This document shows, piece after piece, positions 2,667 to 41,102 of a DNA stretch of 64,000 bases. Origin of the DNA: Candidatus Latescibacterota bacterium (lineage in GTDB: Bacteria; Latescibacterota; UBA2968; UBA8231). How positions within the stretch are numbered: position 1 is the first letter of the stretch; every line of letters starts with the position of its first letter. A model generated the notes under the pieces. The model searched no databases, was not told where the DNA came from, and saw only the letters and a list, made by a program, of their open reading frames with translations. The position numbers were made by a program, and so were the translations under genes. The stretch is from contig OZ241867.1 of NCBI GenBank assembly GCA_965203175.1, forward strand, positions 3,360,001 through 3,424,000, in the 5' to 3' direction.

Positions 2667-2726
2667 AAGCCGTCTGAACATTCTGAGAGTGGCCCTTGAG
2701 GGCAGACGATCCCCACTGGATGTCAC

Positions 2727-3863: not shown

Positions 3864-3980
3864 GTGACTCCTAATTCTGAAGTTTACATTTTTAAAATAT
3901 ATACTATAAGTGTAAACATAATCAACCAAACATCGCAGGGATGGTTAGCAAAAGATATCTGATTAGGAGGTTACTGTAAG

Positions 3981-4160
3981 ATGGCGAAACGCAATCAGCA
4001 TGTCGTTCCGCACAATAGCGGATGGGCCATTCGAGGTGAGGTAATCAGTGCGTCAGTTCGCTCGGAGACAGGGCAGCGAATTGCTTGTCCACGGTAGGGA
4101 TGGACGCATTCGGGAACGCAACTCTTACGGCAACGACCCGTTCCCGCCTAGGGGCTGCTT
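3981..4160 (+). pseudogene. DUF2188-family protein, internally deleted/frameshifted
   Basis: RBS AGGAGG then MAKRNQHVVPHNSGWAIRGE; another frame continues ARRQGSELLVHGRDGRIRERNSYGNDPFPPRG, the typical DUF2188 C-terminus. Confidence 0.75.
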
Positions 4161-4171
4161 AGAGAAAAAAG

Positions 4172-5656
4172 TCATTCGCCTCCTCGGTTGTCGAGATCTT
4201 GCAACCTCTGCTCTATCGAGGCGACGAGGCTGGCATCGCCAGCCTTACGTGCCAAATCGCGCGCCTTCTTGAAATCCTGCCGCGCTTCGTCTATTAAATC
4301 CAACGCGGCCTTCGCAATGCCTCGATTGTTGTAGGTTTCAGCGTCGTTTGGTTTCAGGCGAACCGCCTCATCATAATCGGCAATTGCAGCTTCGTGGCGA
4401 CCCAGTTCGCTCTGTGCTCTGCCCCGGTTGAAATAGGCGTCGGCATAGTTCGATTGCCAGTGGATCGCTTGGTTATAGTCGGCGATGGCGTCCTCGTATC
4501 GCCCCAATTCGCCTTTCGCAATGCCTCGATTGTTGTAGGCTTCAGCGTAGTCCGGCTTCCGGTGAATCGCTTGGTTATAGTCGGCGATGGTGTCCTCGTA
4601 TCGCCCCAGTTTGATCTGCGCGTTGCCCCGGTTGAAATAGGCATTGACATGGTTCGATTGCCAGCGGATCGCTTGATTAAAATCGGCGATGGCGTCCTCG
4701 TATCGCCCTAATTCGCCCTTCGCAATGCCTCGATTGTTGTAGATTTCAGCGTCGTTTGGTTTCAGGCGAATCGCCTCATCATAATCAGCAATTGCAGCTT
4801 CGTGGCGATCCAGTTTGCGCTGTGCATTGCCCCGATTGAAATAGGCATTGACATGGTTCGATTGCCAGCGGATCGCTTGGTTATAGTCGGCGATGGCGTC
4901 CTCGTATCGCCCCAATTCGCCCTTCGCAACGCCTCGGTTATTGTAAGCTTTGGCATAATCCGGTCTCAGACGGATCGCTTGGTCGTATGCGGCAATCTTA
5001 TCTTCGGGCTTTTCCTGTGAAAGAAGATAACCGACGGAAAAGTGAGCTCTGGCGGCGAGTTCCCTATCGACTTCTTCAAAAGCATCGGCGATACCGTGCC
5101 ATATCTTAATGGCTTCTTCTCTCTTTCCCTGATCTTGGAGAAAAACCGCCTCAGCGATTGCCTTATCTGTCGAGGATGCTCGGGGATTTTCGCGGATATC
5201 TTCTACGACCTGCTTCGCTTTGGTCGGGTCATCGGCAGCAGTCTCAGCGTTCATGCCCTGTATAATCTCATCGGATTTATCGCGGTTCCTCTCAATCTCT
5301 TCAAGGTAGCGTTGAGCCTGAGTCTTGAACTCTTCAAATTTCTTGAAACCAAATACACTCGCGAGAAAGGCCGCAATAGGAATGGCAATACTGAAAAACG
5401 TAAGGACAATGGCGACGACAAAGAGCCATCGGTCAATATATGTTGCCCGGTCTTCTAAAAGCTTCTGCTGACGTTCGTTGAAGCGTCGCTCGAATTCGTT
5501 AAAGCGTCGCTGGATTTCGACCTCGACTGCGGCAGGTGTCGCCGGTTTGGCAGTTGGTTCGCTAGATGTGGACACGTCAGCGTCTGTCAATTGCTCATCG
5601 GGTGTCGGGTCAGCATCGCTGGTCGCAGCCTCATCTGCTGTCGGTGCGTTTTCCAT
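4172..5656 (-). CDS. Membrane-anchored tetratricopeptide repeat protein
   Basis: One TM helix (WLFVVAIVLTFFSIAIPIAAFL), coiled coil, then several 34-aa TPRs (AYNNRG..KGELGRYEDAIADYNQAI) with near-identical DNA repeats. Confidence 0.9.
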   Translation of the reverse strand: MENAPTADEAATSDADPTPDEQLTDADVSTSSEPTAKPATPAAVEVEIQRRFNEFERRFNERQQKLLEDRATYIDRWLFVVAIVLTFFSIAIPIAAFLASVFGFKKFEEFKTQAQRYLEEIERNRDKSDEIIQGMNAETAADDPTKAKQVVEDIRENPRASSTDKAIAEAVFLQDQGKREEAIKIWHGIADAFEEVDRELAARAHFSVGYLLSQEKPEDKIAAYDQAIRLRPDYAKAYNNRGVAKGELGRYEDAIADYNQAIRWQSNHVNAYFNRGNAQRKLDRHEAAIADYDEAIRLKPNDAEIYNNRGIAKGELGRYEDAIADFNQAIRWQSNHVNAYFNRGNAQIKLGRYEDTIADYNQAIHRKPDYAEAYNNRGIAKGELGRYEDAIADYNQAIHWQSNYADAYFNRGRAQSELGRHEAAIADYDEAVRLKPNDAETYNNRGIAKAALDLIDEARQDFKKARDLARKAGDASLVASIEQRLQDLDNRGGE

Positions 5657-6900
5657 GGCAGTCCCAACCCATAGAGCAAGAGCGTTGCCGGATACCGTTG
5701 CAACTCAGGCCAAAAATTTGAGCTGCCGCTCAATGGTGTCGAACCAAGACGTTCTAGCGCTCGTTGCCATACCGGATAGTGCTCTTCTTCTGCCCAATAG
5801 CCTCCGGTCATCGCCATCGCTAACAATATCGAACAGGCCGCCTCATATCCGCGCACACGCGCCGTCACCAACTCAGTGGTCGGATCTGGATCTCCGTTCG
5901 CGGAGAAAGCTTGGCCAGACGTCACCTCAACAACTTGCTCAACTGTGTTATTGATAAGGTCCGACAGTTGAATTCGATATCGAGGCTCGGGAATGTAGCG
6001 CTTCAAACTTGCTACGGCGGCTTCGGTCGAGAGAGGATGAGGTCTCGAAAACTCCTCAATGGATTCGACTTGTTGCTGGACCTCATGGAAAAATGTATCA
6101 GCGTTTTTGATGGAAATTACCTGAGCTCTACGATGGTCAATCAGTCTTTGTGCTTTGTCTTCCGGCTCGCCCCGCACTGCCCAGTATGTCGTGAACCGAC
6201 GCGATGGCGCACGGCACATCGCCTTGCGCAACGCACTATCCCACTCTGCTGACCAGCCACATACGATCAGGCCGAACTCATCGAAGATGCGATCTAAGAG
6301 TTGATCGAACGCGGGCGGATACTGATCGAGTTCAGCAGGGGCATTCCTAATGCGGGTATCGAGATAATCACCGTTTACCTTAAAGACACAGCATGGTGTG
6401 TGAATCAATGGGAGTGCGCCCTGAACCTGATCGGGGGAACTCAGAACCGTCGGTACAACTCCTGCCTCGGTGAGGGCGGTTTCCACGAGACGGTCAAAAT
6501 TCGTAGTGATGATGACTTTTATGAATCCTTGTGCAACTAGTTTTGCGATGGCGCGGTGTGCTGCCGTAGGCTGTTTCTCACCTTCCTCGCGCTCTTGGTC
6601 GTTCGGTTCAAAATACGCACGAAGTAACTGCTGTCGCTCGGCTTGCGTCTTGGCTAGTTCATTGAGAAAGTCAGAGTAAGACGCCTCCTTTTCGAATTTC
6701 TCCCGATACCAGTGTTCTATGTCGGAATCACTCGTCTCTCTGGGATGCTCTCCTAGCTTGCGAATCAGATCGAGCGTTATCTCCCAACCCGTGGGAATAT
6801 TCGCTGCCCGAGATACACCCGAACCGACAAGGACAGCGTAAACGCCAGGATTGGCCTGCATCGAAAATGCTAGCGAATGGATCGGGTCAATCATGGTCAT
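5587..6900 (-). CDS. SIR2-like (SIR2_2) domain protein, apparently C-terminally truncated
   Basis: VLVGSGVSRAANIPTGW, IITTNFD, LIVCGWSAEWD; the usual KxHGD reads KVNGD; last 70 bp overlap the TPR gene start. Confidence 0.8.
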   Translation of the reverse strand: MTMIDPIHSLAFSMQANPGVYAVLVGSGVSRAANIPTGWEITLDLIRKLGEHPRETSDSDIEHWYREKFEKEASYSDFLNELAKTQAERQQLLRAYFEPNDQEREEGEKQPTAAHRAIAKLVAQGFIKVIITTNFDRLVETALTEAGVVPTVLSSPDQVQGALPLIHTPCCVFKVNGDYLDTRIRNAPAELDQYPPAFDQLLDRIFDEFGLIVCGWSAEWDSALRKAMCRAPSRRFTTYWAVRGEPEDKAQRLIDHRRAQVISIKNADTFFHEVQQQVESIEEFSRPHPLSTEAAVASLKRYIPEPRYRIQLSDLINNTVEQVVEVTSGQAFSANGDPDPTTELVTARVRGYEAACSILLAMAMTGGYWAEEEHYPVWQRALERLGSTPLSGSSNFWPELQRYPATLLLYGLGLPWKTHRQQMRLRPAMLTRHPMSN

Positions 6901-6928
6901 ACGGATATTTCCGTGCCTCAAGCTGCAT
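6887..6928 (-). pseudogene. Stub of HEPN/DUF86 toxin gene
   Basis: ATG overlapping the MNT 3' end gives MQLEARKYPYDHD*, resembling DUF86 N-termini; sequence then switches to the SIR2 gene start. Confidence 0.55.
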
Positions 6929-20003: not shown

Positions 20004-20044
20004 TGGTGCGCCCGCAGGGGCTTGAACCCTGGACCTGCTGATTA
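20004..20044 (-). other. att site: 41-bp 3' fragment of tRNA-Lys
   Basis: TGGTGCGCCCGCAGGGGCTTGAACCCTGGACCTGCTGATTA, 2 mismatches to 26235-26275; CCA end and T-arm only. Confidence 0.88.
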
Positions 20045-20208
20045 TACATCACATCGTCTGGGAGGGACGTTCCGATGCCGGCCGCAAGCTCAACTGCGGC
20101 ATGTAGTTCTATGCGTTGAAAACTGGCGCGGCGGCGTGGCGCAAGGCGATATTAATTAAGTGAGCCGGAGCGTTTGGCCGGGACTTTCCAATCGTCGGAA
20201 GGACGAAT

Positions 20209-23200
20209 ATGAGCGACATATCCTTTGAGCACGTGTTGAGCAGCCAATACACGGTTTTTGATGGGTTGGCCGGGATGCACGTGGAAGACATCTACCAAGA
20301 CCGCCAAGGCTTTCTCTGGATCGCCACGGCCGACGGCGGCGTCAGCCGGTTCGACAGCGCTCGGTTTGATACGTTTGGCCTCAAGGACGGTCTGCCCAAT
20401 CTGACAGTCATGGCCATTGCCGAGGACGCGGATGGGCGACTGTTGTTCGGCACGTTCGGCGGAGGACTTGCCGCGTACGACGGACGCGGTTTTCAGGTGT
20501 ACACTACTGAGCACGGCCTGCCTTCCAACGAGATTTTGGGTCTGCAAGCCCAACCCGATGGCTCGATTCTGGTGCTGACGGGCGCGGGTGTGGCTTGGTT
20601 TGTCGAGGGGCACTTTATAAAGTGCATAACCGAAGTTGGCGGCCAACCGTTGGAGTGGGTGTACGATATGGCCACTGACGCGGGAGGCACTACTTGGTTT
20701 GCGACGTGGGGAGGCGCCCTCAGTTTGGATGGACAGCACATGGGTATCGGCGACCGGGCGACCCAATGGCCTTGGAAGTTCGCCCAAGATCCCTCCGGGC
20801 ATCTGTGGATTAGTCTCCATTACACGGGTACCGAAGTCTTGATCGGCCGCTACGATCCACGGGACCAACATCTTGAGTTTATTAACGTGGGCAAGGGCGA
20901 TGAGGGGATGGTACAGCACGGGACGCGGCACGTGCGGGCTGACGAGAGGGGCTGGCTCTGGTTGACCCACCGAGGCGTGATGGTACACGACGGGCAGGAG
21001 TGGTATCCTTTTTCTGCTTCCTTGCCAGATATTGACTTTTCGGCTACGCGGCTGACATACGAGGACCGCGAGGGCAATATCTGGATCGGGCTTTGGGGCG
21101 GAGGGCTGATTTTTTGCGATCCAGCTAGTATCCGGCGCTACACGGAAGCCGACGGCCTACCGGACCGCGAGATTCGCCACTTAGGCGAAGACCATGAGGG
21201 TCGAATGTGGATTGGTACGATGGGGGGTATGGCCTGCATGGAAGAGGGGCAAATCTGCCCGGTCGAGACGGGGGAGATCGTCTCGGCGATAGTGGTGGAT
21301 GGCCAGGGGCAGGTCTGGAGTGGTGGGAGTGCGGGCAAGGTGTACAAGTGGGAAGGCCAAACGCCACAAGCGATCACAGTGGTCGCAGATCCCCATCCCG
21401 AAGAAATCGCTGGGCTATGTGAAGATGGGCAAGGGCGTATCTGGGTCGGCACGTCCGAGGGCCGCGTTGGCTGGATAGAGAAAAATCGCTTTATCCATCT
21501 TGATGAATGCAGCACCGCGCTGCAAGACCAAGGCGGGGTATTCTGGGTCGGAACGCTGCTGCGAGACCGAGACGGAGTATTGTGGCTCGGTTCAGTTGGA
21601 TTAGTACCAGCACTCTACTGTTACGAGGATGGGCACTTGCGTCCAGCGGATATGGCCGAAGCGGAGTCCATCTCTTACGTCAACGTCTTGTGGGAGCACC
21701 AAAACCTCCTGTGGGTGGGCACGGCCAAGGGGCTTTTCACCCTTGATCTTTCGTCGCGAGAGGTGCGCCGGTTTACCGCCGAGCAGTTTGGGTTGTCGGC
21801 CAATGGCATCTTGGCGCTGGCGGCCGATTCGCAGGGCAATATCTGGATGGGCACCAGTGGCGGCGGCGTCCTTCGCTACGACGGCGAGACCTTCCAGAGC
21901 ATTCGCTTGGGGCCATCTGCCCTCGAAAACATGGTCGAAGCCGTCCTGTGCGACCATCGCGGTCGGCTGTGGTTTGGCACGCGGGCGGGGCTGGTTGCCT
22001 ACCAGCCGGGACACACCCCGCCGCGCTTGGTCATCCGCGAGGTCATGGCCGGTACGCTCTTGACCGCGCCCGAAGCTGTATCCTGCCCAGAAAGCACCCC
22101 GGAAATCCGCATTCACTTTCAAGGCATCAGCTTCCGCACCGGTGCGGGACAGATGCGCTACAACCACCGGCTGTTAGGCCACGGTCCGGCGGAACAATGG
22201 AGTGCGTTTGCGGTCGCCGATGAGGTCGTGTATAGCGCCCTGCCGGTGGGCGAGTATTGCTTTGAGGTGCGGACGATGGACCGCGATGGTTTGCTGTCCG
22301 AGGTGACTAGCGTGGAGATTCAGATCCTCCCCGACGCCAAAACCGAACGCATCCACGCCCTTGAAAGCGTATTGCGAGCTACCGACCACGTCGTACATAG
22401 TCAGAGTTGGGCGATGCGCCAAGTGATGGAGCAGACCGTGCGGGTTGCTGAGACGGCAATGACCGTGCTGGTGTTAGGCGAGACTGGCACGGGCAAGGGC
22501 TTGCTCGCGCAGACCATCCACGAAACAAGCACTCGCCGCAAGCGGCCTTTTATTCGCGTCAATTGTGGGGCGCTGCCGGCCGGGTTGGTTGAAAGCGAGT
22601 TGTTTGGCCACGAGAAGGGGGCTTTTACCGGAGCCGCTAGCCGTCAGCTTGGGCGCTTTGAACTGGCCGATGGCGGCACCCTCTTTCTCGACGAAATCGG
22701 CGATTTGCCGTTGGAGTCTCAGCGGGTGCTGCTGCACATCTTAGAGGAGAATGCGCTGACCCGGGTTGGCGGCCAGCAGCCTGTGAGCGTGGATGTGCGG
22801 GTCATTGCGGCGACCAACCGCGACTTGCGGCAGGCCATCCAGGAAGGCACGTTCCGCGAAGACCTGTTCTACCGCTTGAGCGTCTTTACCTTAGAGCTTC
22901 CGCCGCTACGGCAGCGGCAAGAGGATATCCCGGCTTTGGCAGTGCATTTTGCAGAGCGGTATGCCCAGCACCTGCGGCGTCCAGTGCCGAGGATAGACGA
23001 CGGGGTGGTCGCGCACTTGCAGGGGTATGCTTGGCCGGGGAATGTGCGCGAGCTGGAGCATCTGATCCAACGTGCGGTCTTGCTGTGCAAGGACGGTGTC
23101 ATTCGGGTGGATGATTTGCCGTTCCTGACGGTTGGACAACGAGCCGGGGACACGGACGCAAGGAAGTCGTTTTCGCCGCTTGCCCAGCCCGCCGAAGGGG

Positions 23201-23364
23201 AGGAAGAAAAGCAACAACTCCTAGCAGCACTCCAAGCCGCCAACTGGATTATCTATGGCGATTGGGGGGCGGCCCGGCTGCTGGGCATGAACCCGGAACG
23301 GTTGCGCTCGCGGATGCGCAAGTACGGCCTGCGGAAACCGAAAAAGCCTGGCGCGGGGGCGTAG
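20209..23364 (+). CDS. Sigma54-dependent activator with N-terminal two-component-regulator beta-propeller and YYY domains
   Basis: Many EDxxGxLW(F/I)GT propeller blades, YYY-like domain (GISFR...YNHRL...LPVGEYCFEVR), AAA+ GETGTGKG, ESELFGHEKGAFTGA, LFLDEIGD, WPGNVREL, C-terminal Fis-type HTH. Confidence 0.93.
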   Translation: MSDISFEHVLSSQYTVFDGLAGMHVEDIYQDRQGFLWIATADGGVSRFDSARFDTFGLKDGLPNLTVMAIAEDADGRLLFGTFGGGLAAYDGRGFQVYTTEHGLPSNEILGLQAQPDGSILVLTGAGVAWFVEGHFIKCITEVGGQPLEWVYDMATDAGGTTWFATWGGALSLDGQHMGIGDRATQWPWKFAQDPSGHLWISLHYTGTEVLIGRYDPRDQHLEFINVGKGDEGMVQHGTRHVRADERGWLWLTHRGVMVHDGQEWYPFSASLPDIDFSATRLTYEDREGNIWIGLWGGGLIFCDPASIRRYTEADGLPDREIRHLGEDHEGRMWIGTMGGMACMEEGQICPVETGEIVSAIVVDGQGQVWSGGSAGKVYKWEGQTPQAITVVADPHPEEIAGLCEDGQGRIWVGTSEGRVGWIEKNRFIHLDECSTALQDQGGVFWVGTLLRDRDGVLWLGSVGLVPALYCYEDGHLRPADMAEAESISYVNVLWEHQNLLWVGTAKGLFTLDLSSREVRRFTAEQFGLSANGILALAADSQGNIWMGTSGGGVLRYDGETFQSIRLGPSALENMVEAVLCDHRGRLWFGTRAGLVAYQPGHTPPRLVIREVMAGTLLTAPEAVSCPESTPEIRIHFQGISFRTGAGQMRYNHRLLGHGPAEQWSAFAVADEVVYSALPVGEYCFEVRTMDRDGLLSEVTSVEIQILPDAKTERIHALESVLRATDHVVHSQSWAMRQVMEQTVRVAETAMTVLVLGETGTGKGLLAQTIHETSTRRKRPFIRVNCGALPAGLVESELFGHEKGAFTGAASRQLGRFELADGGTLFLDEIGDLPLESQRVLLHILEENALTRVGGQQPVSVDVRVIAATNRDLRQAIQEGTFREDLFYRLSVFTLELPPLRQRQEDIPALAVHFAERYAQHLRRPVPRIDDGVVAHLQGYAWPGNVRELEHLIQRAVLLCKDGVIRVDDLPFLTVGQRAGDTDARKSFSPLAQPAEGEEEKQQLLAALQAANWIIYGDWGAARLLGMNPERLRSRMRKYGLRKPKKPGAGA

Positions 23365-23469
23365 AGCGCATATCCGACCGAGATTGAGCGCGATTCTAAT
23401 TCAAAAACAAAATCAAATTTGTAAGGCTTACGGCTTCCTGTCGCCGGGGATACAGGCTGGCCTAGGTCT

Positions 23470-23525
23470 ATACGGAATCTCGTATAATTCATACGGAATC
23501 TCGTATAATTCATACGGAATCTCGT
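23470..23525. promoter_or_regulatory. Three phased 21-bp direct repeats with palindromic core (putative activator binding sites)
   Basis: ATACGGAATCTCGTATAATTC x2.7; core ATACG-N6-CGTAT; about 125-180 bp upstream of a sigma54 promoter. Confidence 0.75.
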
Positions 23526-23647
23526 GTATTACTTTGTGCCGATGGCGGAGTCAGGCATCATATAAAGCCCTGTCCCATTATTTAAGTGTCATGTTTTTCA
23601 ATCCTTTAGGGTGTCCTAAAGGATTTTTTTGTCGGTGGCCCAATCTT

Positions 23648-23662
23648 TGGCACAGAATGTGC
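23648..23662 (+). promoter_or_regulatory. Sigma54 (-24/-12) promoter
   Basis: TGGCACAGAATGTGC with GG-N10-GC spacing, 56 bp before ATG 23719. Confidence 0.75.
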
Positions 23663-23718
23663 GTATATCTTCGCAGCTACGCACCGCATGATCCTCCTCA
23701 AACCTTGGAGAAAATCTG

Positions 23719-25734
23719 ATGAACGTATATGTCGCAGCCATAGTGGCCTTGATCGTCCCCTTGAGCTTATGTCTAGCCCCAGCAAGCGCCCAAAGTCAGT
23801 CCCACGCCGTGATCATCACTGGCGAGGTCCACAACTCTCCGTCGCGGGAAATCGAGTTCCGCCACGAGCCGCTACTTGTTCCCGGGCCTTCCGAACACCA
23901 CATCGTCTTGGACGAGCAAAACCGCTTTGCACTTCTCTTGAATATTCCCAAAGGGATTTTTGTCACCGGGCATTACAAAGATGAGCACAGCATCCCTTTC
24001 TTTGTCGAACCCGGCGATAGCCTGCACGCGGTCGTAACCTTCGCCGAGGTGACGGAGGCCGACTCTGCGGCAGCGGTGGAATCCGATCATTCGCACAGTG
24101 CAGTTTCCTCTTACTCCCTGACTTTTAGCGGCCGGGGAGCGGAAAATAATCACTTCTTAGCCGAGTTCTGGCCTCAACATAGTGCCTTTGAACCAGACTA
24201 TGCGCTGGAGCCCGAGGAGTTTGCACGCCAAGTCAAACAGCGGCGTCAGGATGAATTTGCCTTGCTAGCCGAGGGACGCGAGGAATACGCACTTTCTCCG
24301 GGGTTCATCGACTGTATGACGGTCTTTTTCAACTACAAGTGGGCCGAGCAGATGACTGCCTATCCACTGCTTTCGTTTAGAAACGGCGTCCTAGGGCGCT
24401 CGGCCTCTGCCGACCCAGACAGAAGAAGAGCGGTTCCCCCGGACTACTACGACTCCCTACAAGAAATTCCCTTGATAGATGAGAAAGCTATCGGCGTGGG
24501 GGAATATCGCCGATTTCTGGTGAATACCCTAGCGTTGGAAGCGAAGTCGGATGGGCTATATAGACTTTCCGATAGCTACAAGCTGTCTGGGTTGGGTCTG
24601 TCGGAGTCCATCCGTACCCGACTCGACTCTATGTACGACGCGAACATAAATCCCAGATTATCGCAGATGATCGCTCTGTCGGGTTTGGGTCTGTCGGAGT
24701 CCGCCCAAGCCCAACTTGACTCCATGTACGAAGATCCCAAAAAGGCCAGCGCGTCCGAAAAGGCTGCTTGGTTGGGGTTGGAGTTATCACCCGCCGCCCT
24801 AGCTGAACTCGACGCTTATGAGGAGTATAGTATGTTGCTCGGTGATACCACGAAGACCGATACGACGGGCGGGATTTTGACCTTCCATATGCCCATGGCA
24901 AAAATCAACGAGTGGTTTACCTACTTACACAATCGCCCGCTATCGACAAAGGTTGACTTATCGAGTTTGGAGTTATCACCTGCAGCCCAAGCCCAACTCG
25001 ACTCCATGTACCAAAACCGCAAACCACTCAAGCTAGACTTAGCGGCCTTGGAATTATCGCCAGCCACCCAAGCCCAACTCGACTCCATCATTGCTGGACC
25101 GAGTTTTCCTATCTCCCCTGGGGCTGCAGAACGATATGACCTCGCCAAACAAAAACTGCAAGGGCAAGTACTCTACTGGTTTCTGGCCGGAGAGTTGAGG
25201 ATTGGAATTAAGTTTGGCCTTGAAGCCTATGTGGATGCTCGCTGGCAATCCTTTGAACAGAGCAATCCCTTCCCCGAATACACCGAGGCCCTCCAAGCGG
25301 AAATGAACAAGACCCTAGTCCTACAACCCGGGCAACCTGCTCCCGATTTCACTCTCCATGACCCCGACGGCCAACCCGTATCGCTGAGCCAATTCAAGGG
25401 CAAAGTGGTCTTGATGGATTTTTGGGCGAGTTGGTGCGGACCGTGCATCGGCGATTTGGAGATTCTCCGCAAGATCAAGGAACAAGTGGCCGATCAGCCG
25501 GTCGTCTTCCTCAACGTCTCATTGGACGCGAATGAAGGAGCTTGGAAGAGGGCTATTGCCAAACACCAGATCCAAGGCGTCCACGTGCGCTCGGACGGCC
25601 AAGTAACGCAAGCCTATAATGTGTTCGGCATCCCTCGGTATTATCTCGTGGATCCCCAAGGGCTGATTGTGGAGGATCGTTTGGGGGTATCGGACATTGA
25701 TGAGGTTGTGGCGAAAATCGAGAAAAGTCTGTGA
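23719..25734 (+). CDS. Exported TlpA/ResA-like redoxin with long repeat-containing N-terminal region
   Basis: Signal peptide; C-terminal PGQPAPDF...KGKVVLMDFWASWCGPC thioredoxin fold; internal LxLSxxAQAQLDSMY repeats. Confidence 0.88.
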   Translation: MNVYVAAIVALIVPLSLCLAPASAQSQSHAVIITGEVHNSPSREIEFRHEPLLVPGPSEHHIVLDEQNRFALLLNIPKGIFVTGHYKDEHSIPFFVEPGDSLHAVVTFAEVTEADSAAAVESDHSHSAVSSYSLTFSGRGAENNHFLAEFWPQHSAFEPDYALEPEEFARQVKQRRQDEFALLAEGREEYALSPGFIDCMTVFFNYKWAEQMTAYPLLSFRNGVLGRSASADPDRRRAVPPDYYDSLQEIPLIDEKAIGVGEYRRFLVNTLALEAKSDGLYRLSDSYKLSGLGLSESIRTRLDSMYDANINPRLSQMIALSGLGLSESAQAQLDSMYEDPKKASASEKAAWLGLELSPAALAELDAYEEYSMLLGDTTKTDTTGGILTFHMPMAKINEWFTYLHNRPLSTKVDLSSLELSPAAQAQLDSMYQNRKPLKLDLAALELSPATQAQLDSIIAGPSFPISPGAAERYDLAKQKLQGQVLYWFLAGELRIGIKFGLEAYVDARWQSFEQSNPFPEYTEALQAEMNKTLVLQPGQPAPDFTLHDPDGQPVSLSQFKGKVVLMDFWASWCGPCIGDLEILRKIKEQVADQPVVFLNVSLDANEGAWKRAIAKHQIQGVHVRSDGQVTQAYNVFGIPRYYLVDPQGLIVEDRLGVSDIDEVVAKIEKSL

Positions 25735-25770
25735 GGGAGACACCCGGCCCTAAGGTTAGTCTATATCAGC

Positions 25771-26064
25771 ATGGTGCGCATCAACACATTGAATCGCTGC
25801 GGCCGGACCTTAACCATCGAACTCATGGGATATATCAATAAGACGGAGTTCGACATCTTGTATGAGTGCCTACAATCGCATGTCGAGGAGGGGGTGACGG
25901 AGGTCTGCATCGTGGCCGACGAAGTGCGGAGCCTCAATCCATTGCTTGGACGAGACGCGACCCGTTTGGGACAACTGGTCCCAACGTTGCGCTTCCAGCA
26001 ACTGGCTCCTTCCATACAGAGCACGTTAAAAAGCTGGGGTTTGGAGACGTGGATAGATGATTGA
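25771..26064 (+). CDS. Small STAS-like protein
   Basis: 97 aa; TIELMGYIN...VCIVADEVRSL...IQSTLKSWGL fits the STAS pattern; followed directly by a terminator. Confidence 0.5.
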   Translation: MVRINTLNRCGRTLTIELMGYINKTEFDILYECLQSHVEEGVTEVCIVADEVRSLNPLLGRDATRLGQLVPTLRFQQLAPSIQSTLKSWGLETWIDD

Positions 26065-26102
26065 AAAACCCCCGTGCCGAGGATTTGGCACGGGGGTTTT
26101 TC
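26063..26102. terminator. Bidirectional rho-independent terminator
   Basis: GAAAAACCCCCGTGCC-N8-GGCACGGGGGTTTTTC perfect 16-bp inverted repeat. Confidence 0.88.
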
Positions 26103-26234
26103 GGTTCTCTCAGGTTTCAAAGAGGCTCACGACCGAATAGCGACAACGACTTGAACCGTGTTGGCTGGTGAGATAGTGGTGACACAGCCTTTTCGCCGCT
26201 ATCACATGTTTTTCATAACCTCTTGTTTTTTTAT

Positions 26235-26297
26235 TGGTGCGCCCGCAGGGGCTCGAACCCTGGACCCGCTGATTAAGAGTCAGCTACTCTGCCAATT
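26235..26297 (-). other. att site: 63-bp 3' fragment of tRNA-Lys(CTT), 5' end missing
   Basis: Minus strand AATTGGCAGAGTAGCTGACTCTTAATCAGCGGGTCCAGGGTTCGAGCCCCTGCGGGCGCACCA; the 5' acceptor strand GCGCCCG is absent; next to an integrase. Confidence 0.88.
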
Positions 26298-26533: not shown

Positions 26534-27697
26534 ATGCTTACGGAACGCATCGTGCGAGACGCGAAACCAGACGGCCAAAAGGTGCGGATTTTGTGGGATA
26601 GCCAAGTCAAGGGGCTTGGCCTCAGAGTCAGCACGGCGGGCACCAAGGCGTATGTCTTGAGCTATAGAATCAACGGGCGCAAACGCATAGCGACCCTTGC
26701 CCGCGCTTCGGAAATCAGCCTGAAGCGAGTACGCGAACTGGCAGGGGATCAACTGGTACGTATTCGGATGGGGGAGCTTGACCCGCTGGCCAATCGGCAA
26801 GAGGCCCAACAAGCTCCAACAGTGGCCGATGGACTGCGCCGGTTCTTCGACGAGTTTGTCCCGGCACGTATAGAAATGGGCCGCTTGAGTCCGCGCACTG
26901 TGACGGACTACCGCAAGCAGGCGCGGAGGTATATTGAGTCGTTGGGCAAACTCAAAATTGGCGAGGTTACAAGGGATCACGTAGAGCGGATGGTTGCCCC
27001 CCTGCCCAAGGTACAACGCAATCGGACGCTGGCGTTTTGCTCACGGCTTTTTAACCAGTTCGAGCGTTGGGACTTGCGACCACAGTATTCCAATCCTTGC
27101 CGTGGCATTGAGCGGACAAGAGAGACGCCCCGCGACCGGGTACTGTCGCCGTCCGAACTGGCCGCACTCGCCAAGGCGCTGAACCAGCACGAAGAACAAT
27201 ACCCCGCGTCTGTGGCAGCGATCCGAGTGGCGGCACTGACCGGGCTGCGGATCGGGGAGGTTTTGGGCATCCAATGGAACCACATCGACTTTGAGACGGG
27301 GCGGCTGACACTGCCGGAGACGAAGACCGGGCGGCGGGGCCATGACCTTCCAGCGCCAGCACTCGCGCTTCTTGCCGAGCTTCCCCGGTTTAGTACATGG
27401 GTGTTCACTACAACGGGAACGGCACCAACCACCTATCGCACGGTGCGGACCCACTTTGCCAAGATCGCCGCTGCTGCTGGTATAGAGGAAGTGAGACTGC
27501 ATGACCTGCGGCGCACAGTGATGACACGGGCGGCCGCCTCGGGTGTTAGCACGCATGTCCTGCGCGACTTGCTCGGACACGAGACAACGGAGATGGCCGA
27601 CCGCTATATCCGTGCTGTTGGCGACCCGGTCCGCGCCGCCCGCGAGCAGGTCGGAGCCGAGATGGCCGCCCTGATGTGGAGCAGCGAGGACGGCTAG
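26534..27697 (+). CDS. Tyrosine recombinase/integrase with arm-binding N-terminal domain (P4-like)
   Basis: LWDSQVKGLGLRVS.AGTKAYV N-terminus; TGLRIGE, TKTG, LHDLRRT, LLGH, RY catalytic residues; adjacent to a tRNA att site. Confidence 0.95.
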   Translation: MLTERIVRDAKPDGQKVRILWDSQVKGLGLRVSTAGTKAYVLSYRINGRKRIATLARASEISLKRVRELAGDQLVRIRMGELDPLANRQEAQQAPTVADGLRRFFDEFVPARIEMGRLSPRTVTDYRKQARRYIESLGKLKIGEVTRDHVERMVAPLPKVQRNRTLAFCSRLFNQFERWDLRPQYSNPCRGIERTRETPRDRVLSPSELAALAKALNQHEEQYPASVAAIRVAALTGLRIGEVLGIQWNHIDFETGRLTLPETKTGRRGHDLPAPALALLAELPRFSTWVFTTTGTAPTTYRTVRTHFAKIAAAAGIEEVRLHDLRRTVMTRAAASGVSTHVLRDLLGHETTEMADRYIRAVGDPVRAAREQVGAEMAALMWSSEDG

Positions 27698-29497: not shown

Positions 29498-29927
29498 AGT
29501 ATAATCCTTTCTGTCTTCTGGACGATTCCAGGTAGGTCCGGGCCGATGGATAAATTTTCTCGGCGGGGGAAAGGCCCTGCTCGAACTGATGAGCGAGGGC
29601 CTTTCCTTTTTCGCGTTGCTACGCTTTCCATTGAGAGAACGATAACAGACCCCATTCGAGTCGTCAAGTTCTAAAAAAATAGCGATCTCCCGCATCTTCG
29701 TAGGAGGTCGCTTTTTTATTTTTGGCGCTGGTCCTGTATATTTGGACCGATCTTTTTTTTAAGCCCAACAAAAAACCGAGGTTCCTGTTAGCAGGCAGAA
29801 ACCTCGGATTAACCAAAAGGACACTTCTCTATGTCTGAGATAAATATAGAGGGACTTGCCCTTTTCAGCAATCTGCTTCTTTCCCTCAAAAAGCCGCAGT
29901 ATCATCACTAGCGAAAGGACGAAGACC

Positions 29928-30596
29928 ATGTTGCGAATACTACTTGTAGGAACCTTGCTAGCCACGCCTTTGTCGGCCGATGATTTGGTTGGGGGGTGGA
30001 GTGTTTGGGACTCTGACGCAGGAGATGTTATTCTTGATCTGTACGACGACAGGACGTTCTATCTGGCTATATATCCATCGGAGTCGTTTTCTGAGGTTAT
30101 TGTCGATAACGTCCTCCGATTTTTTGTTCCCTATACTTTGGCCGAGCTAACTGACAGCGGAATGCGAGAGACGGTTGTACAGTATATAGAGATGAATGGC
30201 ACGTATTCCGGGGTAGGCGATACGTTGCAACTTCATCATCCAGAGGGAGCTATACACAACATCGACGGGCATGAGTTCAATACTTGGGAACTTGTGACCT
30301 TCTTGGCCTCTTCTATATTGGCAGGGGCGGATCTAGAGTTGAGCGATGGATATAAAGAGCATTTGATATTCCTCGCAGATGCCTATATGGTCGAAGTGAT
30401 GTTAGACGAAGCCTTGCTTACAACGAAGCTAGGATATGATCTAAGCGAAGGTGATTTGACCTCGCTGACACTGTACGGCCTAATGGGTAAAGAAGAGACG
30501 ACTTTGGATTGGCGAGGAACGCTGATAGAACGAACGGCGACGGGAGTGGAGGGAGCTACATGGGGTGAGATAAAATCGTCGTTGCCTTTCCGATAA
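29928..30596 (+). CDS. Secreted protein with C-terminal TWGxIK motif
   Basis: RBS GAAAGGA, signal peptide MLRILLVGTLLATPLSA; ends TATGVEGATWGEIKSSLPFR. Confidence 0.75.
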   Translation: MLRILLVGTLLATPLSADDLVGGWSVWDSDAGDVILDLYDDRTFYLAIYPSESFSEVIVDNVLRFFVPYTLAELTDSGMRETVVQYIEMNGTYSGVGDTLQLHHPEGAIHNIDGHEFNTWELVTFLASSILAGADLELSDGYKEHLIFLADAYMVEVMLDEALLTTKLGYDLSEGDLTSLTLYGLMGKEETTLDWRGTLIERTATGVEGATWGEIKSSLPFR

Positions 30597-35951: not shown

Positions 35952-38900
35952 TTAGCCTCCGACTCCGAGTGAGTTGTTCGATCCTACCTGTTCTGGAATC
36001 GAGTCGATACCACAATAGGGATAGCCTTGGAAATATCGCCAACCCGTATCATGTATTAGCAGCGATTTCAGTTTCTGAGACACACAACCGTGAAATGAAT
36101 TGTCTCGCACGGCGAAGATTTTAAGAGAGGAGCCAATCAACTGGTTAGGGAATGGTCCACTAAGCTGATTGAGATTGATGCGAACCTCGATTAAGCGATC
36201 CATACCAGACCAAGATGAAGGCACCGATCCTGTGAGTTGATTCCGATGAAGAAGCAATTTCTCCAAAACAGACAGCTCTCCCCACTCAGCGGGTAGCTCT
36301 CCCACAAGACGACATCCCTCCAGATTCAACTCTTGCAGTTTTGCAAGTTGTCCCCATTCAGGTGGCAAGGAAGCATCCAACGGATTATACGACAGGTCCA
36401 AAGTCGTCAAATTGGGAAGCTGTCCAAGCTCTGGTGGCAGAGGTCCCGTCAAGATATTATCCCGAAGGACTAGCCTCTCAAGAGATTTCAGTTGTCCTAA
36501 TTCCGGTGGAATAGCCCCGGACACCTCTGTGTTGACCAAGTAGAACGTTTGGAGGTTAGAAAGTTGTCCCAACTCGGGCGGAATCGCTCCCGAAAGAAAA
36601 AGATTGCCTTCAAGGTTCAAGTATTTGAGAGAGTCTATCTGCCCCAACTCGGGAGGAATGGCTCCTTCGAGTTGATTGTACCCCAACTCCAATACCTCCA
36701 GCTTAGACATTTGTCCCAACTCGGGCGGGATCGCTCCAGAGAGAAGGCCTTTTTCGCTGAACTCTGAAGGCGATCCTCCAAGCCTGAGAATCTTCAAGTT
36801 CTTGAGATCGGCAATCTCTTTGGGGATAGATCCGGAGAATTGATTGTGACCAAGCCCCAACTCCTCAAGCGAGTCGAGTTGTCCGATCTCAGGCGGAATT
36901 TCTCCATCAAAAAGATGTCCATACAAAGAGAGAATTCTCAGACGTTTCAATCCTGCTATTGTCGGTGGAAGGGGACCGGATAAGCCGTCAGTGACCGAGC
37001 CACCCCTACCACAATGGAATTCCTCAAGCTGAGAAAGATTTCCAATCTCAGGGGGTAACTGGCCAGAGAAAGCACTGCCTTCCAGGTTGAGATATATCAA
37101 GGAAGCAAGTTGTCCGATCTCAGGTGGTATGGGGCCAGTCAACTTGTTCCCATTTAAGATGAGCGTTTCCAGGTGGACTAACTGGCCTAATTCGGCAGGA
37201 AATGGGCCAGTCAAGCGATTATTTGAAAGGTCCAATTCTTCTAAATAGGTCAATTTTCCCAGAACGGCTGGCAGCACATGACCTTCCAGATCTCGCCGTT
37301 CGTCGGGCTGTTTCAATGAGATGACGCGGCCTTCGGCGTTGGTTTTGACCCCCTGCCATTTGGCTAGCGATCCCTCTGAATTCCAGTGACGCCACACGGT
37401 GCTATTATCAGGAGACCCCATAGCTTCGTAGAACTCAATCAGCGCAGCCCTATCAGAGGCAACCGATGAGATAGAGCCGGTCAACGGATTTTCTGTGAGG
37501 TTGAGCGTTTTCAGGTTGGTCAGTTGGTCTAATTCGGGTGGAATAGAGCCAGTCAATTGGTTGTTGGATAGATCCAGCGTTTCGAGGTTGGTCAGTTGTC
37601 CCAAGGTCGCCGGGATCGATCCGTCCAATTGGTTATTGGACAGGTCCAATGTTTTCAAGTTGGTCAGTTGGTCTAATTCGGGTGGAATAGAGCCAGTCAA
37701 TCGGTTATCGGATAGGTCTAGCGTTTCGAGGTTAGTCAGTTGTCCCAAGGTCGCCGGTATTGGACCGGTCAACCAGTTATCGGACAGTATGAGTGTTTCA
37801 AGGTTCGCTAATTGTCCCAAGGTGGCCGGTATCGGCCCCTCTAACCAGTTCAGTTTAGTACCATAAGAGACATCGTAGTACGTTCTAGCTATGTCGTTAC
37901 CGAGGTTGAGCATTTTCAGGTTGGTCAGTTGGCCCAATTCAGGCGGCAGCGAACCCCTTAAACCGAGACTATTGAGGATGAGTTCTTCCAGATAAGTTAG
38001 CTGGCCCAATTCAGGCACCAATTCTGTTTCACTGAAGCGTGATTGCTGATAGTTCTGACCACTCAAAGTGGAAATATGTACATATATGGAACGGTCCCAG
38101 CCGGCCTTGGACGGAGAAATCCTCAGTGAAATGACGCGGCCGTCGGAATTGGTTTGGACGTATACCCACTCGTCTAAAGGGGCCTCGCTTTTCCAGTTGC
38201 CCTCGCTTAAAAGACCACGCGGATTATTTCGGTTTGTTCTCGTCGCGTCGTAGAATGCCTCTAGTGCCGCCTTATCGGAGGCGGCGGATCCCTCTGGAGC
38301 GGGAGGCAAGGATGCGGGAGGCACCGGCTCGCCGATGCCCAATGGGTTGGTCCCATCTTGTTCGGCCGTCAAGAAACCGCCCAACAGAGCGAGATCCGTC
38401 CAGTCTATTTGTCCGTCAGCGTTGACGTCTCCTAGCTGTATGTTGCCACCCGGAGGGACCGTGCCATTCAACAGGTAAGCGAAAAGAACAAGCGCATCGT
38501 CCCCATCGACGGTTTGGTCTCCATCCACATCGCCTAAGAGAGGGGACGCCCCGTTTTCTACGAGCTTGCCCGCAGGATGTGACCGGGGAACCTCATCAAC
38601 GGTTTGGCCTTGATCCGCATCGCCGCTCTCTGCGAGTTTGTCCACAGGATATGCCGGGACCTCATTGATAGTTATGACCTTCCCTGTAAAGACAAACGCC
38701 GTGTCCACATAGGTTGCCATATAAGGCCCGGAAACGCCCAACCAATAGCTCGGCCGTTGAGGAACAGAGACCTCGAAGTTACCTTGGTTATCCACGGGCG
38801 CACGAGCCAGTACCACCAGACGCTCCGCGTCTATGATAACTACCTCGGCCTTCGACATTGAAGATCCCTCAACCGTCATAATTTGGCCTCGTTGGGCCTG

Positions 38901-39200
38901 TTCTGGGCCAGACGGATAGAGGGGATTGGCGGACTGGTTTTCAGGCCGACGGTCGTCGTCGCCACAAGCTACCATCGACAAGGTGAACGTCAGAACCAAC
39001 AGGCTACGTATGGTACATTTTCCCGGTTTAGTCTCTTTGCGCCATAGGCAGCAGGAGAACACGCGGGCTTTCCTTCTTCCTACCTTCCCATCACACCATA
39101 CCCGTTTTGAAAAGCTAAAAGACTCCGAGACAATAGGCGTCTTGGGGACGCATGACAGGACGAAGAGCAGAAATTCTACGAGGGCGGCGAGGCGAGACAT
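35952..39200 (-). CDS. Eukaryote-like leucine-rich repeat lipoprotein with dockerin-like domain
   Basis: Many 24-aa plant-type LRRs (LxxLdLSxNxLtGxIPxeLgqL), two LRR-NT caps (SDxAALxxFY), GDVDGD/GDVNAD dockerin-like pair; start uncertain. Confidence 0.88.
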   Translation of the reverse strand: MSRLAALVEFLLFVLSCVPKTPIVSESFSFSKRVWCDGKVGRRKARVFSCCLWRKETKPGKCTIRSLLVLTFTLSMVACGDDDRRPENQSANPLYPSGPEQAQRGQIMTVEGSSMSKAEVVIIDAERLVVLARAPVDNQGNFEVSVPQRPSYWLGVSGPYMATYVDTAFVFTGKVITINEVPAYPVDKLAESGDADQGQTVDEVPRSHPAGKLVENGASPLLGDVDGDQTVDGDDALVLFAYLLNGTVPPGGNIQLGDVNADGQIDWTDLALLGGFLTAEQDGTNPLGIGEPVPPASLPPAPEGSAASDKAALEAFYDATRTNRNNPRGLLSEGNWKSEAPLDEWVYVQTNSDGRVISLRISPSKAGWDRSIYVHISTLSGQNYQQSRFSETELVPELGQLTYLEELILNSLGLRGSLPPELGQLTNLKMLNLGNDIARTYYDVSYGTKLNWLEGPIPATLGQLANLETLILSDNWLTGPIPATLGQLTNLETLDLSDNRLTGSIPPELDQLTNLKTLDLSNNQLDGSIPATLGQLTNLETLDLSNNQLTGSIPPELDQLTNLKTLNLTENPLTGSISSVASDRAALIEFYEAMGSPDNSTVWRHWNSEGSLAKWQGVKTNAEGRVISLKQPDERRDLEGHVLPAVLGKLTYLEELDLSNNRLTGPFPAELGQLVHLETLILNGNKLTGPIPPEIGQLASLIYLNLEGSAFSGQLPPEIGNLSQLEEFHCGRGGSVTDGLSGPLPPTIAGLKRLRILSLYGHLFDGEIPPEIGQLDSLEELGLGHNQFSGSIPKEIADLKNLKILRLGGSPSEFSEKGLLSGAIPPELGQMSKLEVLELGYNQLEGAIPPELGQIDSLKYLNLEGNLFLSGAIPPELGQLSNLQTFYLVNTEVSGAIPPELGQLKSLERLVLRDNILTGPLPPELGQLPNLTTLDLSYNPLDASLPPEWGQLAKLQELNLEGCRLVGELPAEWGELSVLEKLLLHRNQLTGSVPSSWSGMDRLIEVRINLNQLSGPFPNQLIGSSLKIFAVRDNSFHGCVSQKLKSLLIHDTGWRYFQGYPYCGIDSIPEQVGSNNSLGVGG

Positions 39201-39935: not shown

Positions 39936-41102
39936 ATGCTCGCCAAACCGACCTTTTCCGATTGGGAGGCCGTCGCCGACCATTGGAAACTGCGGCGAGT
40001 AGGCCGCGAGCTTTCCGGCCCTTGCCCCTTGTGCGGAGGCCGCGACCGTTTCCACGTCCGCGAGGAAAGCGCCGGCGCGGTCGTAGGTTGCCGCGGCTGT
40101 ATCGACGGCCAACCGCAAGGCCGTGCCCGCTTTGGCGAGCTGATGCACTTGGTGTTTGGCGACCGCTTTTTGCCGAAATCACCAAAATCGCGTCAGAGGC
40201 TCCAAAACGGCCCTGTAAGCCACCCAAGGGAACACACCAGCGAACCAGCTCGCGCAGTCGAGCAGACCAAAAGCCAACGCCGCGCCGCCGAATTTGGCCG
40301 CCGCTTGTGGAGCGAAGCTGAGCGGATCCCCACACCCTCGAGCACTGGCCCGTCCGACACGTCACCGCCGAGGTTATGGTTTGCAGCTCGTAGCTTGCTG
40401 CACCCTTGGCAGACCCCACCGCCAGCGATCCGCTACCATGCGAGCAAGCAATTGATTGTCACTGGACTGTGGTCCCTCGACGCGGTCCGCACCGCTTGGC
40501 CCGGGCTACCTACCGATCCGCCGCCGGCCGTCCACTGTATAGCGATCGATGAGGAGGGCCAGAAGCGATACCCGCCGCGCAGGACGGATGAAAGGGGTCA
40601 CCGGCACGACAAGCGCACCTATGGCCAGATTACCTACACCGGCGCAGTCTTGGCGCTGGGCGACCCCGAAGCCGTGGCCGATCCCGTTCACATCTGCGAA
40701 GGCGTAGCCGACGCCCTAGCCATCTATTCGCGCAGGCCCGGACTTGTGCTAGCTAGCATCACGACTGTTACGGCCGTAATCAAGCGCCCCGGAGTGTTGC
40801 GACGCATCTACGATAGTCGCCGCGCCTATATCTGGTCGGACATCGACGCCAACCGGCAAGGCCAAGACGCCGGTGCACAACTAGCCGAGGCCCTGAAAGC
40901 GGCAGGCATCACTACCGCGACCGCGACAGGCGACGAAGGCCAAGACCCCGCCCAATGGAGCGCTGAGCTAGGTTGGCCCGTACTAGCTCCCGATCAATTC
41001 GCAGAAATCGCCGGCAAGTCCCTTGACGACGGACAACCGCTTGCCGAGGCCGATCGGATAGCTATTCATACCCTAACAACAGCGCAAGGAAACCAACATT
41101 GA
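39936..41102 (+). CDS. DNA primase (Zn-binding domain plus TOPRIM)
   Basis: GPCPLCGGRDRF...GCRGC zinc finger; ICEGVADALAI and WSDID TOPRIM motifs. Confidence 0.82.
   Translation: MLAKPTFSDWEAVADHWKLRRVGRELSGPCPLCGGRDRFHVREESAGAVVGCRGCIDGQPQGRARFGELMHLVFGDRFLPKSPKSRQRLQNGPVSHPREHTSEPARAVEQTKSQRRAAEFGRRLWSEAERIPTPSSTGPSDTSPPRLWFAARSLLHPWQTPPPAIRYHASKQLIVTGLWSLDAVRTAWPGLPTDPPPAVHCIAIDEEGQKRYPPRRTDERGHRHDKRTYGQITYTGAVLALGDPEAVADPVHICEGVADALAIYSRRPGLVLASITTVTAVIKRPGVLRRIYDSRRAYIWSDIDANRQGQDAGAQLAEALKAAGITTATATGDEGQDPAQWSAELGWPVLAPDQFAEIAGKSLDDGQPLAEADRIAIHTLTTAQGNQH

Follow-up and report, generated by a model that had tools for sequence, protein, structure and literature searches.

A predicted cytoplasmic double-propeller sensor on a sigma-54 activator, carried by a cassette inserted at tRNA-Lys in a Latescibacterota genome

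How might a sensor fold that is known only from the cell exterior work when, as the sequence suggests, it is coupled to an AAA+ motor without a membrane? This question is raised by a ~6-kb stretch at tRNA-Lys in a closed 6.58-Mb genome of Candidatus Latescibacterota (G000; other G numbers denote congeners or relatives, L numbers loci and P numbers homologues). It lies in a window of 64,000 nucleotides (nt), the whole stretch of DNA that was analysed (genome positions 3360001-3424000), and is one copy of a large cassette family. It encodes a sigma-54 activator, followed by a promoter module and genes for a TlpA-like and a STAS-like protein. We suggest, with a probability of roughly two in three, that the activator has a cytoplasmic sensor, likely binds three palindromes behind its own gene and, on ligand binding, likely turns on the TlpA-like and STAS-like genes. 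What is new is a double-propeller input on an otherwise textbook sigma-54 switch, borne on a mobile cassette. In window coordinates, the parts on which the argument rests are these:

20209..23364, + strand: predicted soluble sigma-54 enhancer-binding protein (EBP) of 1051 amino acids (aa), from open reading frame (ORF), Pfam, hydropathy and AlphaFold
Domains of this protein, by residue: propellers 1-600, Y_Y_Y ~605-707, linker helix 710-724, AAA+ 728-975, helix-turn-helix (HTH) 998-1039
23470..23527, no strand: predicted enhancer (upstream activating sequence, UAS) of three TACG-N6-CGT(A/G) palindromes with a 21-nt period; called from the repeats, position conserved across paralogues
23570..23632, + strand: AT-rich tract and 11-bp hairpin (23600-23625), then a T run; best terminator-like match
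23648..23662, + strand: sigma-54 -24/-12 box TGGCAC-N7-GC (GG-N10-GC); called from sequence; in paralogues it follows the hairpin core at a conserved 44-47 nt
23719..25734, + strand: exported TlpA-like protein with WCGPC, a signal-peptide-like N-terminus and a C-terminal thioredoxin fold
25771..26064, + strand: 97-aa STAS-fold protein (AlphaFold pLDDT 92.6; Foldseek match to RsbV, TM score 0.81, E 2e-6)

The activator combines a sensor, a motor and a DNA-binding domain in one chain. Because an in-frame TGA lies 48 nt upstream of its start, there is no space for a longer N-terminus. Pfam assigns Reg_prop (E 3e-45) and Sigma54_activat (PF00158, E 1e-69) plus the AAA lid, together with weak matches to Y_Y_Y (E 9e-4, under the curated cut-off) and HTH_8 (E 6e-4). 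The AAA+ motifs are intact, comprising Walker A and B, the GAFTGA loop, sensors I and II and the arginine fingers (757, 804, 825, 867, 882, 943), and the recognition helix of the HTH is of the Ser type (ERLRSRM, Ser/Tyr position at residue 1034). A Response_reg domain was not found at E<=0.01 in Pfam, and the AlphaFold model leaves no space for such a domain; the Pfam scan likewise showed neither a histidine kinase nor a receiver nor an AraC output in the activator. The model, based on an 85-sequence alignment (mean pLDDT, the predicted local distance difference test, 90.5), is all-beta through residue 707 and continues with one short helix (710-724), the AAA+ domain and a three-helix HTH. Residues 8-709 superpose on the BT4663 sensor (666 residues aligned, Z 32.2, root-mean-square deviation (rmsd) 6.5 Å) and residues 728-975 on the AAA+ domains of FlrC, NtrC1 and FleQ (rmsd 1.4-1.7 Å). 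No sigma-70 promoter was found for the activator gene.

By every sequence sign, and as modelled, the activator appears to be soluble and its sensor cytoplasmic. No transmembrane (TM) helix was detected in it, as the best 19-residue Kyte-Doolittle mean is 1.48 and lies within a propeller blade, and the linker (hydropathy 0.41) joins Y_Y_Y to AAA+ as a short polar helix. A signal peptide was not detected either, with the first 45 residues reaching 1.05 versus 2.88 for the N-terminus of the TlpA-like redoxin. Hydropathy flagged two of 120 close relatives, at 1.62-1.64. A distant set comprised the 150 best representatives at 50% clustering, 120 of which were readable at the Y_Y_Y end. Sixty-one of these 120 have neither signal peptide nor TM helix and carry a GAFTGA-type AAA+, 15 have neither and an output that is of another kind or imperfect, 36 have both (16 of them with AAA+) and eight are mixed. 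Since signal peptide and TM helix are found in those 36, the hydropathy test has power and detects TM helices where they are present. The two features go missing together. A ~100-aa N-terminal domain without a name is common to soluble activators (P0125, P0133-P0136, P0148, P0150) and TM relatives (P0180, P0208, P0252), the latter being signal-peptide-bearing kinases; there is a hint that the soluble forms may have arisen by loss of signal peptide and TM helix.

The sensor is under purifying selection (ratio of nonsynonymous to synonymous substitution rates, dN/dS, 0.19-0.21) and is most variable at residues 121-270 and 331-480. Across the activator, 34 close genes gave dN/dS of 0.05-0.46 per 30-codon window and 0.59 in the partial last window; positive selection on the sensor loops was considered and rejected, all full windows being at <=0.46. 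The whole architecture is kept across many clusters at 30-55% identity. A query with the sensor-to-AAA junction matched 92/132 genomes, a count that can include other propeller fusions, with up to 11-13 matches per genome. The relatives carrying named records are mostly Latescibacterota metagenome-assembled genomes, some labelled Gemmatimonadota, and of ten distant clusters four have names (Latescibacterota, Gemmatimonadota, Poribacteria and one generic label). In the ESM Atlas, homologue P0031 returned a cluster of its own kind with 70 members and nothing further. The same sensor also occurs on TM kinases and on SpoIIE phosphatases, some of them soluble.

Directly behind the activator gene stands the promoter module. 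Its repeats start at 23470, 23491 and 23512, each is itself an ACG-N6-CGT palindrome, and the palindrome centres lie 171, 150 and 129 nt before the GG of the promoter, compared with ~131, 152 and 172 nt across loci. The genome contains eight intact close paralogues (this gene included), one broken and two distant ones, and the other intact close paralogues are 61-88% identical to this activator. A profile was built from the downstream regions of the nine close paralogues in this genome; the module stands after all nine, and the profile search also found three full orphan modules, one without a -24/-12 box, and some partial ones, with a best E of 1.3 on the reversed genome. A count made independently of this profile gave 1069 ACG-N6-CGT sites in the genome, with 16 pairs spaced 20-22 nt apart versus 0.52 expected, and 16/16 of these pairs fall in eight modules, where a -24/-12 box follows at a distance of 147-173 nt in every case. 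Both rpoN and three HU/IHF genes are present in the genome, rpoN outside the cassette. The hairpin at 23600-23625 is likely the terminator of the activator transcript and would insulate the promoter; its tract is possibly also a site for a DNA-bending protein. In 46 distinct copies the hairpin has a loop of 4-6 nt, nine two-sided changes, ten G-U pairs and seven mismatches, in a search whose pattern itself fixed part of the stem.

These features suggest a mechanism that combines two known modes of action. BT4663 is described as dimeric, as binding disaccharides on its propellers (PMC5121618) and as signalling by a scissor movement (PMC8534201). Here, the propeller/Y_Y_Y part would dimerise as in BT4663 and restrain the AAA+ domain via helix 710-724, which would occupy the place of the TM helix of the relatives. 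A ligand bound between the propellers may shift the Y_Y_Y ends and release the AAA+ domains. With its palindromes spaced by two helical turns, the enhancer would take up three HTH dimers and thereby hold a single hexamer on one face of the DNA, and this hexamer would loop across ~130-170 bp to the sigma-54 holoenzyme and open the promoter. By likely ending the activator transcript just before the promoter, the hairpin would keep basal read-through low. As to the ligand, we can only guess: an imported oligosaccharide or sugar acid comes first, at somewhat less than even odds, and a peptide or protein and any other kind of ligand follow, each a little behind it and level with one another.

The HTH appears to be matched to its enhancer. 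In a first set of 68 de-duplicated regulators (from 60 further loci and this genome), 48 were callable: LR(S)R occurred with TACG-N6-CGTA 23 times and LR(Y)R with another flank, mostly CACG-N6-CGTG, 25 times, with no discordant case for either; the uncalled regulators comprised three ties, two with too few sites and 15 without a module. A second set of 24 further regulators of this helix type gave seven Ser/CGTA and eight Tyr/other loci, again none discordant, with two ties and seven without a module. Combined, the Ser/Tyr residue matches the flank in 63/63 callable loci (of 92), these loci being kin and partly orthologous. Four EK-LRSR hybrids go with CGTA, which singles out the Ser/Tyr position, and this residue aligns with what we take to be the exposed face of the Fis recognition helix. 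The Ser/Tyr state changes 9-10 times on the AAA+ tree; supported branches yield 4-5 independent pairs, each of them concordant (p 0.06-0.125). A motif-free flank caller was noisy (45/66 and 10/24 called) and gave no discordant locus. For distant members with a P[SP]STL helix, it returned five CC, no TA/TG and 12 uncalled; these members tend toward GCG-N6-CGC sites and are mostly not callable by script.

Because the paralogues share enhancer types, cross-activation is likely. This activator is of the Ser type and would have its sites in common with paralogues E, F and H. On the orphan modules, every one of which is CACG-type, Tyr-type paralogues would act in trans. Orphan modules head arrays at G000:C1:2453768-2464956 (- strand) and 1373002-1381572 (+ strand), with FG-GAP/T9SS-tail or TolB-like genes behind them (T9SS, type IX secretion system) and no adjoining activator. 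At G000:C1:1363135-1363345, a module with an enhancer remnant and hairpin, without a -24/-12 box, stands directly upstream of paralogue E. Joints resembling it are also present in RNA runs X2 and X3; two RNA runs had a 0.05 share, and their contigs are mostly <95% alike and silent on strand, start and level.

The unit that runs from the activator to the end hairpin lies between two copies of a tRNA-Lys end, and the features of this insertion are:

20004..20044, no strand: left attachment (att) site, where the tRNA-Lys(CTT) 3' end was displaced, with the CTGATTA core as its last letters; it shares 95% identity with both 26235-26275 and the intact tRNA
20045..20052, no strand: first letters of the insert, likely an attP arm; also at the left junction of paralogue cassette C
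20052..20121, + strand: remnant of a T9SS-sorting-domain / FlgD-Ig gene (its 3' end); two genome sites match it over 70 nt with 79-81% identity, 3333748-3333818 (in a TIGR04183 match) and 3335637-3335706
26065..26234, no strand: GC-rich two-way hairpin (26065-26100) and 170-nt arm; the arm recurs beside the tRNA-side end of inserts
26235..26295, no strand: right att, ~60 nt of tRNA-Lys; 41-nt direct repeat, and the intact tRNA stands here in G010
26534..27697, + strand: tyrosine integrase (Pfam scan) that belongs to the neighbouring 54-kb island and not to the cassette

The cassette is a true insertion at tRNA-Lys and moved as a unit. Among 19 congeners with the left flank, 11 are empty, with the intact tRNA exactly there, and eight have inserts: the same cassette beside an intact tRNA, with the left att copy missing (G010), another paralogue together with its module and a pair of T9SS-tail genes (G012), a distant paralogue with secreted proteins (G003), three large defence-like inserts, one of 2 kb and one ending at a contig break. 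The 170-nt arm is absent from the empty-site alleles and present in other inserts at this site; it shares 86% identity with the arm that adjoins the intact tRNA-Lys, and partial copies lie by tRNA-Thr and tRNA-Arg. That intact tRNA-Lys(CTT) is at genome positions 3440686-3440761, outside the window and 54 kb past the right att copy, and ARAGORN found no tRNA gene in the window; the tRNA's own 5' part was displaced at the right att by the later 54-kb island. A sister copy, paralogue cassette C (G000:C1:2247493-2251975; L185, L187), spans 4.5 kb with an activator, a module and a TolB-like gene. It has the same 14 left-junction letters, a 14-mer with two copies in the genome (here and at 2247493) and none in 30 congeners, and at its other end stand 12 letters of the tRNA-Lys att. 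Cassette C was inserted precisely, at a 5-letter core where an unrelated gene has its stop codon; its flanks are directly joined in four of 24 relatives' loci (G010, G011, G013, G127), and none has the activator at that place. Given the common junction letters, both cassettes look as if they had been delivered by one site-specific system; they differ in cargo and enhancer type. The adjacent integrase was considered as the general mobiliser and rejected, as it was not found at E<=1e-40 in 30 congeners including G010. No joint of an excised circle was seen in the best 15 of 80 joints, on fragmented contigs. The three large inserts at this site (L091, L092 and L093, in G001, G002 and G013) measure 14-15 kb and contain ORFs of 1175, 1110 and 983 aa that look like defence helicase, ATPase or methylase genes by eye.

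Much of what the original prediction had read from the letters is borne out: propeller and YYY domains directly on a GAFTGA AAA+ and HTH without signal peptide or TM helix (hydropathy with controls, Pfam, AlphaFold), a predicted soluble one-component sigma-54 architecture with its own enhancer and promoter directly downstream, and phased repeats, -24/-12 box, redoxin, STAS-like gene and end hairpin between att copies, moved together. Three features were not part of that prediction: the conserved hairpin at 23600-23625, the palindromic form of each repeat and the place of the intact tRNA beyond the window, on the far side of the 54-kb insert. The circuit had also been named as a strong candidate for an undescribed system, and this agrees with our full-text literature search, which found no description of a propeller/Y_Y_Y sigma-54 activator in a body of text that leaves subscription journals mostly outside its coverage; database names for these activators are generic only.

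What, then, does the activator control? As predicted from sequence, the cargo is mostly exported surface protein. At 47 loci (six further loci were uncalled), the first same-strand ORF past the promoter is TolB-like in 11, FG-GAP/FlgD-tail in six, A24 peptidase-like in five, TlpA-like in four (six when two ORF miscalls are included), small and Cys-rich in four, another activator in four and other in 13, and 38 of the 47 have a hydrophobic N-terminus. Several cargo proteins have T9SS type A tails; because the genome has 103 such matches, beside an SprA homologue, the modules can account for only some of the exported proteins. The TlpA-like protein here has many paralogues in the genome, scores below the curated ResA/TlpA cut-offs (74.7 of 170 and 54.3 of 230 bits) and has a 530-aa N-terminal region without a Pfam match. 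In this protein, window 24580-25090 contains at least four degenerate repeats of ~20-30 residues, their number varying between paralogues. For the STAS-like protein, sequence searches gave nothing significant and the fold search alone matched. The phospho-acceptor motif of RsbV/SpoIIAA is D-S-S/T-G; by eye, against this consensus, a Pro apparently stands at the place of the Ser, and no partner kinase gene lies within the cassette. The STAS-like gene is present in 19/121 genomes, almost all of one genus, and sits within cargo arrays beside other genes, often behind a DUF4159 or FlgD-tail gene, so that the order activator-TlpA-STAS equals arrays such as L002, L006 and that of paralogue B minus the intervening genes. 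Thus, the idea of a circuit dedicated to an exported thiol-disulfide protein is not supported.

Further observations concern the cargo. Cys-rich proteins of 91-93 aa with a pilin-like leader and hydrophobic stretch (L005:13109-13381, L018:9480-9755, L020:9499-9777, L049:9733-10011), two of which were scanned without a Pfam/NCBIfam match, and the A24 peptidase-like genes that head other cassettes of the same family (e.g. L030:9517-10659) could together form a processed peptide or pilin system. In L005, L013, L054 and L019, the module of a Ser-type activator stands directly before a second activator gene (~9550-12730 in L005/L013; truncated in L019), which might constitute a cascade or amplifier. 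A conserved S-W-G-x-I-K tail ends many cargo proteins (e.g. G000:C1:1366649-1375281; also window 29856-30596) and is possibly a sorting signal that has not been recognised as such. In our proposal, sensor, HTH-plus-enhancer pair and cargo would recombine among interchangeable cassettes. A wider version, in which integrase-less cassettes form a mobile mix-and-match kit whose sensor, Ser/Tyr-matched DNA address and cargo are swapped independently, with some cascades remodelling the cell surface and a readable HTH-to-enhancer code, is more tentative, and we hold it to be rather less probable than its negation.

Several points weigh against the main proposal. The linker helix 710-724, on which the restraint of AAA+ would depend, has a pLDDT of only 54-59, and the model is a monomer. 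The numbers of G-U pairs and mismatches (10 to 7) are no basis for telling an RNA hairpin from a DNA dyad. Behind the module of paralogue H, no same-strand ORF is called, and 15/68 paralogues have no module downstream. A tree of flanking DNA, with codon and enhancer removed, needs only five Ser/Tyr switches, all concordant (p 0.0625); moreover, HTH codon and enhancer lie 100-350 nt apart and can travel as one block, and such block transfer can explain the covariation without direct contact. No carbohydrate-active enzymes were among the cargo types scanned, which weakens the guess of a sugar ligand. Lastly, no recombinase is matched to the cassette, as none lies among its three genes between the att copies and the neighbouring one is missing from the 30 congeners. 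The cassette had been called self-contained; that holds for its own enhancer and promoter, and fails for the integrase, for RpoN, which is encoded elsewhere, for the enhancer types, which are shared, and for the family members without a module.

Among other explanations, the one we take most seriously, although we consider it unlikely by comparison, is that the activator is controlled by a protein or peptide instead of a small molecule, with the propellers docking a partner, for example the STAS-like protein, a cargo precursor whose export went wrong or a Cys-rich peptide taken back into the cell. Partner-controlled activators are familiar from PspF/PspA and NifA/NifL, and propellers commonly bind peptides. 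The STAS-fold protein is predicted to be cytoplasmic and co-transcribed, the cargo includes pilin-leader Cys-rich proteins (4/47) and A24 peptidase-like genes (5/47), and the promoter precedes another activator in 4/47 loci. Against this, the STAS-like gene is so restricted, set beside the 92/132 genomes matched by the junction query, that it cannot be the general partner of the family, and the same sensor faces the periplasm on TM kinases and phosphatases.

A redox circuit, in which the activator would sense thiol or redox stress and induce an exported thiol-disulfide protein, is improbable. It is true that, both here and in G010, the promoter is followed directly by a TlpA-like gene with WCGPC, that several redoxin-containing genes are headed by paralogue G, and that C303, C404 and C626 are nearly invariant in 113 close relatives; but a TlpA-like gene comes first in only 4-6 of 47 loci, activators that are 85-90% identical head TolB-like or FG-GAP genes instead, and the wide alignment keeps only C786, in AAA+, as a nearly invariant Cys. 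We regard as more improbable still an inducible defence or stress cassette whose sensor detects a phage- or damage-derived molecule at a tRNA-Lys defence hotspot: the helicase/methylase-like large ORFs at the same site in G001, G002 and G013 would fit, whereas the cargo here consists of exported propeller, FG-GAP, redoxin and peptidase proteins and most paralogues lie in arrays away from tRNAs. Least probable of all, to the point of being hardly credible, is that nothing is sensed, the propellers being a scaffold, output being set by the activator level and the cassettes being selfish or drifting duplicates. The many copies, the one broken paralogue and the decayed modules and fragments might be read in this way; however, the sensor is under purifying selection with localised variable loops, and its architecture persists over large sequence distances. 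Our preferred reading remains a ligand-controlled activator of exported cargo.

Around the cassette, window 1800-6921 encodes an AbiEii nucleotidyltransferase, an HTH-IrrE-like protein and SIR2-like and TPR ORFs; the latter two (4172-6921) overlap in different frames and are possibly one split gene. On the other side, the 54-kb island (window 26300-64000) carries its tyrosine integrase, an IS5-type transposase, HNH, an LRR-dockerin protein (35952-39200), a Toprim + AAA_25 pair (39936-42256), a Ser/Thr kinase, AAA_21+DUF4435, solute-binding proteins and a stand-alone Cache protein.

In a fully soluble protein, the scissor mechanism of propeller/Y_Y_Y sensors becomes testable. Members of the family are common in one class of uncultured bacteria and seem to control exported proteins, and their ligands would reveal which signals matter to these organisms. 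The match between HTH residue and enhancer flank provides a precise and cheap prediction, namely that exchanging Ser for Tyr would exchange the preferred site, and possibly orthogonal sigma-54 parts.

How does this switch relate to known systems? In a study of D. vulgaris EBPs, a UAS lies 100 bp or more upstream, one-component EBPs usually adjoin their promoters, GAF and PAS are common one-component inputs, 10/13 lie beside sigma-54 promoters and "propeller" has 0 occurrences (PMC4641369). Like one-component EBPs of the DmpR/XylR, NorR, FhlA and NifA type, the activator has a GAFTGA AAA+ with all motifs, a C-terminal HTH and its input in the same chain, and its gene is beside the target promoter, with tandem palindromic UAS >100 bp upstream of a -24/-12 box. 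Unlike them, its input is a 700-residue double propeller plus Y_Y_Y instead of GAF, PAS, V4R or a receiver, it falls under every NCBIfam equivalog cut-off among the matches listed, and its enhancer lies behind its own 3' end, with two enhancer types in the family. The Bacteroides hybrid two-component systems (BT4663, 4A2L/4A2M; BT3049, 3V9F; BT4673, 3OTT/3VA6) share the two seven-bladed propellers and Y_Y_Y, with sequence E-values of 2e-47 to 3e-24 and Z of 29.5-32.2 over 643-672 residues; for BT4663 and BT3049, Z is 32 and 31 over 666-672 residues. By contrast, the activator has no signal peptide, TM helix, kinase, receiver or AraC domain, its output is sigma-54 remodelling, and its neighbours are exported propeller and redoxin genes, not polysaccharide utilisation loci. 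Membrane-anchored propeller-Y_Y_Y-TM-AAA+ activators (16 clusters, e.g. P0182, P0210), for which the same literature search, with its coverage, found no paper, likewise combine these two end modules in a single chain; unlike the activator here, they retain signal peptide and TM helix along with a long coiled coil, and they fall mostly on a separate branch of the sensor tree. As for the cargo, the TlpA-like protein resembles TlpA/ResA in its exported thioredoxin fold with CxxC and differs in its N-terminal region and sub-threshold scores, and the STAS-like protein resembles RsbV/SpoIIAA in fold and differs in apparently having no phospho-Ser and in having no kinase partner in the cassette. Finally, genomic islets that target tRNA genes without an integrase of their own are a known class, with which the cassette shares the duplicated tRNA 3' end, the empty site in relatives and tandem inserts, and from which it differs in its content, a complete regulator-enhancer-promoter-cargo unit.

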